From Polyangiaceae bacterium (GTDB taxonomy: Bacteria; Myxococcota_A; Polyangia; Polyangiales; Polyangiaceae), in assembly GCA_947502375.1 (NCBI GenBank), contig CANMZR010000001.1, forward strand, positions 4,886 through 68,885: a DNA stretch of 64,000 bases, read 5' to 3'. Of this stretch, positions 49,342-51,366 are shown piece after piece. The notes below the pieces were generated by a model. It did no database searches. It was not told the origin of the DNA and worked only from the letters and a program-made list of their open reading frames with translations. Both the position numbers and the translations under genes were made by a program. The first letter of the stretch is position 1; every line of letters begins with the position of its first letter.

Positions 49342-51366
49342 TCAGTGAGGCACGTTCGGCTGCTCCCAAAAGATGGAGCCGTCCTTGTTCCAGCTATACT
49401 CGAGCGCCGGAATTGTCCCGGAAGCGACCGTCATCTTCCACCAACGGTCCGGGAAGAGCACGACCGAGTACGTAGTTGCACTCACGCCGGCGCGAGGCGT
49501 CATCTTGATGAGGGCCCCTTTGCCTGTGGGCGGCCGAAACTCAATGCTTAACGAGGCTGGGAGAGACACCGTGGCCTTGACCACATCGACGCTGGCTCCG
49601 CCGAGTTCGATGAACATGCTGATGGCGAACTTTGAACTTAACAGGCCACCACCCGCGAACTCATCGTGCTGATCCTTCTCGATAAAGATCGTCGCAGCGA
49701 TAGCGAAGTCGACCAAGAAGCCAAGGTCAACGTTGACAATGTTGTACTTGCGCAGCAACTGAGCGACCGTCGCCATGTATGGTCCAGCGATCAACAAGAG
49801 CGAGACCGTCGGGCTCCACCTCAGACCAATGAGTTTGGGGCAGCCAAAGTCAACCTTCCACTTCTGCCCAACGCGCGCCGCGGTGTAATAGCCCCACCCT
49901 CGCGCGCTCTCTCGATCCGTCGTGCGTTCGTAGCTCATGGTGACCGTGAGGTTCAGCCCCTTGCACAGGTCAAACTGCAGCGGCACGTTAGCGAGGTCGG
50001 AGAGCTTCTTCACCGTGGAAAGAGACTTGTCGAGGGTCTTGAGGGCGTCCTTCAGGGAGTCAATGGTCTTGGCCGCCTTGTCGAATTTTGCCTTCGCCTC
50101 CTCGGCTTTCTTGAACTGGTCCTTCGCTTTGTCGTAAGCGTTGTCACCTCGATTGGTCGCGCGTTCGTTGCCTTTCTTCGACGCTCCGTCTGTCCCTTTG
50201 AGCGAATCCGCCTTGTCCGATTCGAGAAGCCCCTTGCCCACATTTGCGTCGCCGAGCTTATTGTATTTCGCTTGGTCTGCCGCGGCTTGATTCTGCGCGC
50301 CCTCGGTGGCCTTCTTCTTGTCCTCGAGCGTTTTTGTTACTTCGTCGTACTTTTTACCGTGGAAGCTCTCCTCGTGGAGCGGGTTGTCCCACTCGACGGA
50401 GAAGCTCAGCACTCGCTTTGGGAAGACCTTCAGCACGGCGTCGAGCGAGCCTGCACACGACGTCGCGGTCACTTTGAGTTCGGGCGCCGAACACCACCAC
50501 CAGCAGAAAAATAGGAACGTCCGAACGTCCACCTTCAGCGTGCCGGCCGCGGTCTTGACCGCCGTCGGAGCTTCTGCTTCGAGTTGAAGCCTCGCCAACG
50601 AGTTGATCACCGCCGCCGGATCTTTGGTGCCGACTTCGGCCATGATGTCCGCCATCGCGAACGGCTCCACCACGAGGTCCGCAGGAACCGCAAACGTGTC
50701 GATCCCCACCTGTTTTTTTTCCTTCGTGTCGATGAAGAGCGGAAAGACCTGTCCTTTTGCTAGCCAATTCGTGTGCGGCCCCAGCTCGCAGTTGGGGTTC
50801 AACTCGTTCGGCGTCTGCGTGATGTCATGACGTGTCGCGACAAACGTCACGGTGTCGCCTTGCTTCACCTCGAGGTAGTTCGGCGCGCCGGTCTTGTCTT
50901 TTCCAAGGTACCCGAGAACGCCGCCGTCGCCAGAACGCGCCTCCCACTTGGTCAACGTGCACTTTTTCTTCGCACGCGCCTCGACGCTCTTTGCAGCCAC
51001 GGCCAGAGGCGCAGGCGTGACGGCACCGCTCGCGTTTCCGTGGTTCTGCGTCGTCGGATCGCCGGTGCGGGCCACGGGTGCCCCCTCGATGCCAACATCC
51101 TTCGAGCCGCTGACGACAACGGCCTCCTTCAAGGTCGTGCCGCTCTTGGTCCCGAGGATTCCGCCACCGGTCGAGGGGTCCCACTGCGTACGACCAACCA
51201 GCGCGATAGGGTTGCCCTCGATGGTCGTCTTGGTCGACGCGCCAGGCGCAAGGTTCGCCGCTGGCGCGACGTTCTCGTGGGGGCCGTTCACGCAGCCTTC
51301 GGAACCGACGGCCCGATGGCCGGAGCCCTTGTGAACGATTTCTTGCTGTGCGTTGCTCGCTGGCAT
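49342..51366 (-). CDS. PAAR-like (DUF4150) T6SS effector with an about 540-aa C-terminal domain of unknown function
   Basis: N-terminal ~125 aa: ...STKTTIEGNPIALVGRTQWDPSTGGG...VVVSGSKDVGIEGAPVARTGDPTTQNHGN resembles DUF4150 PAAR-like domains. The remainder has a Lys-rich coiled coil and hydrophobic C-terminal segments. Confidence 0.7.
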   Translation of the reverse strand: MPASNAQQEIVHKGSGHRAVGSEGCVNGPHENVAPAANLAPGASTKTTIEGNPIALVGRTQWDPSTGGGILGTKSGTTLKEAVVVSGSKDVGIEGAPVARTGDPTTQNHGNASGAVTPAPLAVAAKSVEARAKKKCTLTKWEARSGDGGVLGYLGKDKTGAPNYLEVKQGDTVTFVATRHDITQTPNELNPNCELGPHTNWLAKGQVFPLFIDTKEKKQVGIDTFAVPADLVVEPFAMADIMAEVGTKDPAAVINSLARLQLEAEAPTAVKTAAGTLKVDVRTFLFFCWWWCSAPELKVTATSCAGSLDAVLKVFPKRVLSFSVEWDNPLHEESFHGKKYDEVTKTLEDKKKATEGAQNQAAADQAKYNKLGDANVGKGLLESDKADSLKGTDGASKKGNERATNRGDNAYDKAKDQFKKAEEAKAKFDKAAKTIDSLKDALKTLDKSLSTVKKLSDLANVPLQFDLCKGLNLTVTMSYERTTDRESARGWGYYTAARVGQKWKVDFGCPKLIGLRWSPTVSLLLIAGPYMATVAQLLRKYNIVNVDLGFLVDFAIAATIFIEKDQHDEFAGGGLLSSKFAISMFIELGGASVDVVKATVSLPASLSIEFRPPTGKGALIKMTPRAGVSATTYSVVLFPDRWWKMTVASGTIPALEYSWNKDGSIFWEQPNVPH

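Follow-up and report, generated by a model that had tools for sequence, protein, structure and literature searches.

A probable type VI secretion tip protein and its large C-terminal extension in a three-VgrG gene module of a Polyangiaceae bacterium

We analyzed a 64,000-nucleotide (nt) stretch of contig CANMZR010000001.1 from a Polyangiaceae bacterium (assembly GCA_947502375.1, positions 4,886 to 68,885), hereafter called the window, with a focus on a minus-strand gene that encodes a 674-amino-acid (aa) protein with a PAAR-like N terminus (the tip gene and the tip protein). The tip protein is very probably the PIPY-class tip of a dedicated type VI secretion system (T6SS) spike module. We hold with similar confidence that its C-terminal extension (residues 126 to 674) is a family-specific, vertically inherited, multidomain body and not a recently acquired polymorphic toxin cassette. 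As for the role of the extension, our favored reading, to which we assign a probability of about 0.4, is that it would be the cargo of the module and would act nonenzymatically on a membrane.

An N-terminal PIPY domain in the tip protein

The gene and the domain at its 5' end are located as follows.

49342..51366, minus strand: tip gene, an open reading frame (ORF) of 674 aa with an ATG start and GGAG 9 nt upstream of the start
51028..51282, minus strand: PIPY/Tox-PAAR-like (DUF4150) domain, residues 29 to 113 (PF13665 and PF05488; weak match to the PAAR protein 4jiw)

A first-pass annotation of this DNA, made from the letters and translations alone, had read the N terminus as PAAR-like DUF4150. 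The Pfam search bore this out, since the Tox-PAAR-like profile PF13665 matched residues 29 to 113 with an E value of 5.9e-10 and 39.7 bits, above the curated cutoff of 31, and the PAAR_motif profile PF05488 reached 27.5 bits for a cutoff of 27. No other PIPY-like ORF occurs in the window. The linkage typical of PIPY proteins is also present, with a DUF2169 gene 12 nt downstream and a VgrG gene (VgrG1) upstream, separated from the tip gene only by the gene of a 269-aa protein that we call p269.

PIPY domains carry a P(I/V)P(Y/F) motif, which is conserved, close to the cone vertex (PMC11883445). At this position, the tip protein carries N-G-P-H (residues 27 to 30), which retains the second proline but has histidine in place of the aromatic residue. 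The motif is degenerate in the subfamily, as the close relatives have NGSF, NGTY, or EQPY, and the distant members P0017, P0027, and P0041 display PVPF or PTPF after a conserved cysteine. The peptides that had been singled out in the annotation were all found where it had placed them, namely, TIEGNPIAL (48 to 56), VGIEGAP...NHGN (91 to 111), CWWWC (288 to 292), and the hydrophobic segments VSLLLIAGPYMATVAQLL (521 to 538), FLVDFAIAATIFI (550 to 562), and FAISMFIELGG (580 to 590). The Lys/Ala/Asp-rich helical region is present as well, at residues ∼338 to 448, with 20% K, 15% A, and 12% D over residues 333 to 460.

The extension and its relatives

We searched a profile of residues 126 to 674 exhaustively with HMMER against 1.84 billion representative proteins and obtained 93 clusters (50% identity) at an E value of ≤1e-3, 37 of which were at ≤1e-30. 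An earlier word-index homology search had returned only 6 relatives, and the whole family is visible only by exhaustive search. Most matches are 570 to 780 aa long, and among the matches listed, the extension nearly always starts ∼100 to 180 residues into the protein, directly after an N terminus of PIPY length. The exceptions among the matches listed are apparent gene fragments and one VgrG fusion in which a PIPY-like stretch precedes the extension. None of the matches listed shows the extension as a free-standing cassette in another context. The relatives with a taxonomic placement belong to Polyangiaceae, Myxococcales, and "Deltaproteobacteria" metagenome-assembled genomes (MAGs), and their names in the source are generic ("Zn-binding protein involved in type VI secretion," "DUF4150").

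Two unusual architectures were seen in the family, each of which is either a real fusion or an artifact of metagenome gene calling: in P0073 (1437 aa), a VgrG continues in frame into a PIPY domain followed by the extension, and in P0077 (1066 aa), a DUF2169 domain is joined to a portion of the extension.

In the alignment of 66 family sequences, C136, C193, C304, and P316 are invariant, and L151, R179, D181, H198, W201, and A301 are conserved in at least 90% of the sequences; no position is invariant in the last 210 residues. Searched singly and as a profile of 6 sequences, residues 126 to 674 matched no family in Pfam (E values up to 1), NCBIfam, PHROGs, or the PDB sequences. Together with the fold searches described below, this agrees with the first-pass annotation, which had recognized no toxin family in the C terminus. 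Matches to ATP synthase b, the type III secretion system needle tip protein, and PspA were discarded as coiled-coil noise. A tblastn search of the plasmid collection gave no match. Within the window, we found neither paralogues of the tip protein nor internal repeats in it (hhalign probability of 0.6% for domains A/B against domain C, which are defined below).

Native third codon positions in an AT-richer gene

The first-pass annotation had noted three 60-nt lines of low G+C content in the tip gene and had suggested a swapped-in module. Our recount of these lines agreed exactly (0.600, 0.533, and 0.483, for a window mean of 0.638 per 60-nt line and a standard deviation of 0.064). At the scale of genes, the total G+C content is 0.602 in the tip gene versus 0.62 to 0.68 in the neighboring genes, and locally it is 0.55 to 0.61 across the extension versus 0.65 to 0.70 in the downstream accessory genes. 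Such values could be expected if a generic PAAR-like carrier had recently received a foreign, AT-richer toxin module, as occurs in polymorphic toxins. However, when the G+C content was split by codon position, no foreign signature appeared at the third position. This third-position content (GC3) is 0.767 for the tip gene and 0.73 to 0.83 for its subdomains, which cannot be told apart from the values of the rest of the module, the protease, and the flagellar genes (0.69 to 0.79, mostly 0.73 to 0.79). The gene is low only at the first and second positions (GC1, 0.58; GC2, 0.46), and the dip is therefore explained by a protein composition rich in Lys, Asp, Thr, and Phe. Furthermore, the three adjacent VgrG genes are also low in total G+C content (0.617 to 0.621).

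Divergence within the family points in the same direction. Compared with the same six homologues, the identities are 95, 62, 58, 51, 43, and 49% for the PIPY domain, 89, 59, 61, 55, 52, and 51% for domain A, and 96, 57, 39, 39, 37, and 39% for domain C. Identity thus declines in parallel across the PIPY domain and domains A, B, and C, which argues that the extension is not a swapped-in module. In addition, the full-length architecture is kept down to ∼20% identity, and the same module of 9 to 12 genes surrounds the tip gene in distant relatives. Judged by these sequence comparisons, the swapped-in toxin is already contradicted, and we give it hardly any credence. For annotation in general, the lesson is that a drop of G+C content inside a gene does not indicate a foreign module unless the third codon position shifts too.

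Predicted structure of the extension

An AlphaFold2 model of residues 126 to 674, built from the 66-sequence alignment, had a mean predicted local distance difference test score (pLDDT) of 88.6 and a predicted template modeling score (pTM) of 0.79. An earlier full-length model from 7 sequences (pLDDT of 53.6, and below 50 for residues 1 to 134) was not used for the fold search. The model and the alignment define the following parts.

50959-50961, minus strand: C136, just before domain A, invariant (66-sequence alignment)
50683..50958, minus strand: domain A, residues 137 to 228, a six-strand beta-sandwich (AlphaFold2 pLDDT, 93 to 97)
50788-50790, minus strand: C193, domain A, invariant (66-sequence alignment)
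50773-50775, minus strand: H198, domain A, near-invariant, as are R179, D181, and W201 (66-sequence alignment)
50485..50682, minus strand: helical linker, residues 229 to 294, variable, with insertions in homologues (AlphaFold2, conservation profile)
50389..50481, minus strand: domain B, residues 296 to 326, three strands ("PPEIKVTATSCAG...VFP") with the invariant C304 and P316 (AlphaFold2, alignment)
50455-50457, minus strand: C304, domain B, invariant (66-sequence alignment)
49993..50334, minus strand: three long helices, residues 345 to 458, the Lys/Ala/Asp-rich "coiled coil" (AlphaFold2 pLDDT, 66 to 91)
49354..49980, minus strand: domain C, residues 463 to 671, beta-rich (AlphaFold2 pLDDT, 82 to 97)

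A short helix (residues 128 to 135) precedes C136. The linker comprises helices over residues 229 to 264 and then an aromatic helix (281 to 292) that contains CWWWC. In this segment, W290 and W291 are conserved in close relatives and the two flanking cysteines are not; we consequently dropped CWWWC as a functional motif, because neither Cys is conserved in the homologues. The long helices (345 to 389, 396 to 426, and 429 to 458) form an insertion of variable length that is occupied in ∼10 to 40% of the aligned family members.

Domain C contains four strictly amphipathic strands of 19 to 21 residues (499 to 517, 545 to 564, 570 to 590, and 593 to 611), a bent strand pair with the same amphipathic pattern (463 to 481), and one hydrophobic helix pair (523 to 540). 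On the Kyte-Doolittle (KD) scale, one face of the strands averages +2.2 to +2.7 and the other about −1, and this two-faced alternation is kept column by column across the 66 sequences. The hydrophobic stretches noted earlier near the C terminus thus correspond to amphipathic strands and to the helix pair 523 to 540, not to predicted transmembrane helices. The lack of invariant positions in domain C argues against an enzyme there. Short matches in the family search that could pass for standalone domain-C proteins look like gene fragments and were not retained as such.

Searched with Foldseek against the PDB and BFVD, the extension received no significant assignment. In the PDB, the best E values were 0.14 to 0.4, with probabilities of ≤0.13 and template modeling (TM) scores of ≤0.2. 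The top echoes, none significant, were pore-state gasdermin D, Trichoplax gasdermin, the perforin-2 pore, the membrane attack complex, SPLUNC1/BPI-like proteins, and porins. In the comparison with beta-pore-forming toxins, the best PDB matches had E values of 0.14 to 0.3, probabilities below 0.1, and TM scores of 0.07 to 0.15. Tail fiber matches in BFVD (E value of 3e-4, TM score of 0.13, and root mean square deviation of 42 Å) were set aside as artifacts of elongated shape by their appearance.

All polar residues of the extension that are invariant or nearly so are grouped in domains A/B, which probably hold a structural Cys3His metal site. The same cluster would fit an enzymatic or metal/thiol-dependent toxin with its site in domains A/B (C136, R179, D181, C193, H198, and C304), a cytoplasmic target, and p269 as the immunity protein. 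We consider this unlikely, for three scattered cysteines and one histidine resemble a structural zinc site more than a catalytic triad, C136 is at the C-terminal end of a helix and not at the N-terminal end as in papain-like folds, and no toxin profile or fold was matched. An enzyme in domains A/B would also leave 340 conserved residues (domain C and the helices) unexplained.

p269 and the immunity question

The gene directly upstream of the tip gene encodes p269.

51380..52189, minus strand: p269, 269 aa, 13 nt upstream of the tip gene (unmatched in Pfam, NCBIfam, and PHROGs)

The maximal KD value of p269 over 19-residue windows (KD19) is 0.61, and the protein has no transmembrane-like hydrophobic segment. 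Its homologues form a rare family of 9 clusters, are found directly upstream of the long-PIPY gene in 11 of the 11 other loci with upstream DNA, and are 31 to 63% identical across these loci. The conservation of p269 is no lower than that of the tip protein. We propose, from its position and conservation, that p269 is a candidate dedicated chaperone or partner of the tip protein.

An orphan long-PIPY gene was found in locus L003 (9611-11671), between the genes of an MMPL transporter and a pyridoxal phosphate-dependent enzyme, with no VgrG, p269, or DUF2169 gene nearby.

The first-pass annotation had considered p269 as a possible source of immunity to a membrane toxin. This is unlikely, given the absence of a transmembrane-like segment, its good conservation, and its absence beside the orphan copy. 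For a cytoplasmic enzyme toxin, a soluble protein encoded 13 nt away and strictly syntenic would be as expected of its immunity protein. However, p269 equals or exceeds the putative toxin in conservation and is encoded upstream of it, and the orphan copy again does without p269. Downstream of the tip gene, the annotation had pointed to the lack of an immunity-like gene, and this holds in every related locus examined: the next minus-strand gene, after 12 nt, encodes a DUF2169 protein (47956-49329) and not a small immunity-like ORF. The minus-strand row is tightly packed, with gaps of −8 to +13 nt from VgrG2 through HEAT2, its last gene; with overlaps or gaps of ≤13 nt, a small immunity ORF would not fit beside the tip gene.

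Three ordered VgrG paralogues and a structural alternative

Upstream of p269, the row contains three VgrG genes.

52198..54414, minus strand: VgrG1, cognate spike protein, directly upstream of p269 in every case (Phage_GPD, Phage_base_V, Gp5_trimer_C)
54422..56686, minus strand: VgrG2 paralogue (Pfam; orthologues by position 43 to 73% identical)
56731..58962, minus strand: VgrG3 paralogue (Pfam, synteny)

The gene order DUF2169, VgrG3, VgrG2, VgrG1, p269, long PIPY, DUF2169, thiolase-like, and HEAT is kept in loci L001, L002, L004, L006, and L007. The same order was found in L009, where the tip protein is only ∼25% identical and a third DUF2169 gene is inserted before the HEAT gene. A partial module is present in L005, L008, L010 to L013, and the P0002 contig. 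The three VgrG paralogues occur in the same order in the 6 loci, out of 6, that include enough upstream DNA (L001, L002, L004, L006, L007, and L009). VgrG orthologues defined by position are 40 to 73% identical, whereas the three paralogues are 25 to 30% identical among themselves, which indicates that the VgrG triplication is old and that its order has been retained. Three ordered VgrGs with a single PIPY/PAAR-like gene in the window suggest an obligate heterotrimeric spike and not three alternative spikes.

The end of the module in L009 is followed by a fragment of an IS66 transposase and a phage-type integrase (19352-21670), which hints at a mobile island.

Instead of a toxin, the extension could be a structural or assembly part of the spike, a single-copy 550-aa tail that would dock on the asymmetric shaft of a VgrG1/2/3 heterotrimer, occupy the cavity of the baseplate, or recruit cargo from genes located elsewhere, and without which no secretion-competent spike would be built. 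This role is possible and, in our estimation, nearly as likely as that of a membrane-active cargo. It would fit with the association of the long-PIPY gene with three ordered VgrG paralogues in all 6 loci, with the ratio of one PIPY gene per three VgrGs, and with the lack of an immunity gene in any locus. The whole protein coevolves with the module, its C-terminal region was not found elsewhere as a free-standing cassette, domain C has no invariant catalytic-type residues, and the pTM of 0.79 describes one rigid multidomain body. Tvp proteins or effector moieties are possibly required to occupy the baseplate cavity (PMC13373197). On the other hand, a module with a purely structural extension would hold no cargo, and the tip gene is its least conserved and fastest-evolving gene (in L002, 49% and 41% identity over two aligned segments, versus 48 to 72% for the other genes), with a helical insertion that varies freely. 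Nor does a structural part sit well with the orphan copy in L003, which has neither VgrG nor accessory genes nearby, or with the VgrG lengths (733 to 745 aa), which do not follow the length of the extension.

Membrane-active cargo as the favored reading

We favor a membrane-active cargo because the extension is the only candidate payload in the 12-gene module, because the tip gene evolves fastest, because the dedicated soluble partner encoded upstream is positioned like an effector chaperone, and because domain C combines a large, conserved sheet of amphipathic strands with the lack of an invariant catalytic-type residue. In the mechanism that we envision, the PIPY cone would cap VgrG1 or a VgrG1/2/3 heterotrimer and would be kept loadable by DUF2169 (TvpA) and the thiolase-like TvpD, while p269 would shield the extension. 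Upon firing, the extension would be carried at the very tip of the spike into the target envelope, where the long amphipathic strands of domain C may act on the membrane by insertion, permeabilization, or fusion. If the extension is indeed cargo, the lack of an immunity gene points to a non-self target, such as a eukaryote or foreign prey, that would not be offered by sister cells, or else to a toxicity that would need delivery from outside.

Several observations weigh against a membrane-active cargo. The extension has no significant fold or profile match, and any soluble beta-sandwich would be just as likely to have amphipathic strands. No transmembrane helix is predicted, and the sole 19-residue window of the tip protein with a KD value above 1.6 (residues 543 to 562) is modeled, confidently, as a beta-strand. 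Unlike typical polymorphic toxin domains, the C-terminal region was not seen free-standing among the matches listed. The antibacterial T6SS effectors known to target membranes come with immunity proteins of the membrane or periplasm, and no small, membrane, or periplasmic ORF resembling an immunity gene was found in any of >10 loci. Finally, the 64-kb window contains no T6SS core.

A more elaborate version would combine an obligate heterotrimeric VgrG spike of three anciently diverged paralogues, one asymmetric PIPY cap, an immunity-less, nonenzymatic beta-sheet payload of a new class that inserts into or fuses membranes, and a dedicated 269-aa chaperone that keeps it soluble, in a device used by Myxococcota against eukaryotic grazers or prey. 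We regard this full combination as rather improbable.

Other genes of the module and of the window

The transcription order of the module is HEAT1, 214-aa, 188-aa, DUF2169, VgrG3, VgrG2, VgrG1, p269, tip gene, DUF2169, thiolase-like, and HEAT2, and the row is apparently cotranscribed. A scan of the module for promoters and terminators gave no more matches than in shuffled sequence. The remaining genes of the row are listed below in this order.

61954..63954, minus strand: HEAT1, HEAT/TIGR02270-like, head of the module (HEAT_2 E value of 8.6e-8, 32.8 bits for a cutoff of 27.7)
60909..61553, minus strand: 214-aa low-complexity protein (sequence)
60166..60732, minus strand: 188-aa protein with gp5/VgrG-like C-terminal strand repeats (weak DUF2345 match, E value of 0.056)
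58959..60059, minus strand: canonical DUF2169, first copy, probable start at 60059 (PF09937 E value of 1.2e-57)
47956..49329, minus strand: divergent DUF2169 (TvpA-type), 12 nt downstream of the tip gene (PF09937 E value of 5.3e-14)
46949..47959, minus strand: thiolase-like PRK06147 (TvpD-type), 4-nt overlap with DUF2169 (NF004798 E value of 4.5e-43)
44881..46956, minus strand: HEAT2, HEAT/TIGR02270-like, 691 aa from the ATG at 46956 (TIGR02270 E value of 4.7e-8; HEAT_2 weak)

HEAT1 and HEAT2 are 36% identical over 649 aa. The 188-aa protein, for which L002 has a 67% identical counterpart in the equivalent place, is a candidate TvpC-like precomplex protein. In the NCBIfam search, the thiolase-like protein scored 147.8 bits with NF004798, below the equivalog cutoff of 342, but is homologous. 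The longest-ORF starts of VgrG1, HEAT2, and the first DUF2169 gene are probably wrong. The VgrG1 ORF runs to 54612 with a probable start at M67 (54414), 7 nt after the VgrG2 stop; the HEAT2 ATG overlaps the stop of the thiolase-like gene (TvpD) by 8 nt; and the first DUF2169 ORF extends to 60329, with homologue alignments that begin at about residue 90. Pfam scans gave no toxin-like annotation in the other genes of the module. None of the module proteins has a convincing transmembrane-like hydrophobic segment, the only KD19 value above 1.6 outside the tip protein being 1.68 in the thiolase-like TvpD.

DUF2169 (TvpA) is a chaperone of the PIPY domain (PMC11883445, PMC13373197), and the thiolase-like TvpD is a proposed cochaperone (PMC13373197), an idea that came first from Liu et al. 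2020 (PMC7714669). By analogy, the gene set described here is a cluster like the DUF2169 "synteny type A" of Sachar et al. 2025 (PMC11883445) and a system like Tvp class II of Monlezun et al. 2026 (PMC13373197). The features of these types that are present are a single-domain DUF2169 followed by PRK06147 and a TIGR02270 HEAT protein. Those that are absent are a DUF6484 protein beside vgrG and a recognizable toxin domain with its immunity gene. For DUF6484 (short TvpC), no useful Pfam match was obtained in the module proteins (E values up to 1 for the 214-aa protein and up to 0.01 for HEAT2). An "HGL-E..W" motif that seemed to be shared by the 214-aa protein, the DUF2169 C terminus, and ORF 43737-44870 was rejected, as it had no BLASTP support at an E value of 0.01.

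Next to the end of the module, region 43731-44870 has long ORFs on both strands, with a 369-aa minus-strand ORF overlapping a 377-aa plus-strand ORF. The plus-strand ORF (43737-44870) is better conserved (42 to 46% in L002 and L004), is convergent on the module end, and belongs to no family.

Farther away, a flagellar gene cluster occupies 5188-22652 on the plus strand (FliF, FliI ATPase, FliK-like protein, and FlhA). Polyangiaceae and Myxococcales are usually regarded as nonflagellated. Here, a flagellar cluster shares the window with a T6SS module whose nearest relatives are Polyangiaceae/Myxococcales MAGs.

Comparison with known systems

Tse7 (PA0099, from the vgrG1b cluster of Pseudomonas aeruginosa) and PefE (Proteus mirabilis) end in short toxins of the nuclease type, with an immunity gene after them. 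In contrast, the tip protein described here has a 550-aa C terminus of unassigned fold, and it has no immunity gene. Compared with the P. aeruginosa and P. mirabilis models, the gene order is also changed, with the tip gene ahead of DUF2169 and not behind the thiolase-like gene, and the module comprises three VgrGs, two DUF2169 proteins, two HEAT proteins, the extra p269, and no gene matching the DUF6484 profile. What is shared with Tse7 and PefE is the N-terminal DUF4150/PIPY domain and, at the level of the clusters, the linkage to VgrG, a single-domain DUF2169 followed by PRK06147, and a HEAT/armadillo-like TIGR02270 protein (PMC11883445, PMC13373197). Tse7 and PefE are DUF4150-containing effectors of Tvp class II/DUF2169 synteny type A clusters (PMC11883445, PMC13373197). 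In the Tvp/DUF2169 papers, the PIPY proteins Tse7, PefE, Tde2, VP1415, and TseV are effectors, and several of them are nucleases or are encoded beside immunity genes.

Specialized PAAR-like effectors with unrecognized C termini are common, and the bare finding of one more would be unremarkable. What is unusual here is a large, vertically inherited extension for which Pfam, NCBIfam, PHROGs, PDB, and BFVD yielded no relative, the consistent lack of immunity genes in the loci examined, and a conserved triple-VgrG module with duplicated accessory proteins. If the extension is cargo, it would represent a beta-rich, immunity-less class of T6SS effectors and would point to nonbacterial targets in Myxococcota. 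If it has a structural role, the module could serve as a natural system to address whether VgrG heterotrimers are purposeful and why PIPY spikes need many helpers, two questions posed in the 2025-2026 Tvp/DUF2169 papers (PMC11883445, PMC13373197).

Among membrane-active proteins, gasdermin, the perforin-2/MACPF pore state, and BPI/SPLUNC1 have antiparallel amphipathic strands of ∼20 residues like those predicted in domain C, a likeness of strand length only. By Foldseek, none of them matched the extension significantly (E values of ≥0.14, probabilities of ≤0.13, and TM scores of ≤0.2), and no signature motifs were found in it.

Effectors of the VasX/Tse4/Ssp6/Tme1 type are mostly alpha-helical or glycine-zipper proteins, are delivered as cargo, and have membrane or periplasmic immunity proteins. 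With VasX, Tse4, Ssp6, Tme1, and the Vai1-neutralized Serratia VgrG1-associated effector, the tip protein would share the proposed nonenzymatic action on membranes and the use of a specific VgrG-PAAR spike (PMC13373197). Unlike these effectors, it is predicted to be beta-rich, is fused to the tip, matches none of them, and has no immunity candidate.

Burkholderia VgrG5, a Tvp-type protein, carries a membrane-fusogenic, nonenzymatic, anti-eukaryotic C-terminal domain and has no immunity gene. In that case, the active domain is on the VgrG and not on a PAAR-like protein, and the system is of class III, with DUF3540 and pentapeptide-repeat proteins. Both systems nevertheless combine a DUF2169/DUF4150-type spike with a lineage-conserved C-terminal domain, an effector domain in VgrG5 (PMC13373197) and a candidate one here, which makes VgrG5 a precedent, in function only, for the membrane-active cargo that we favor.

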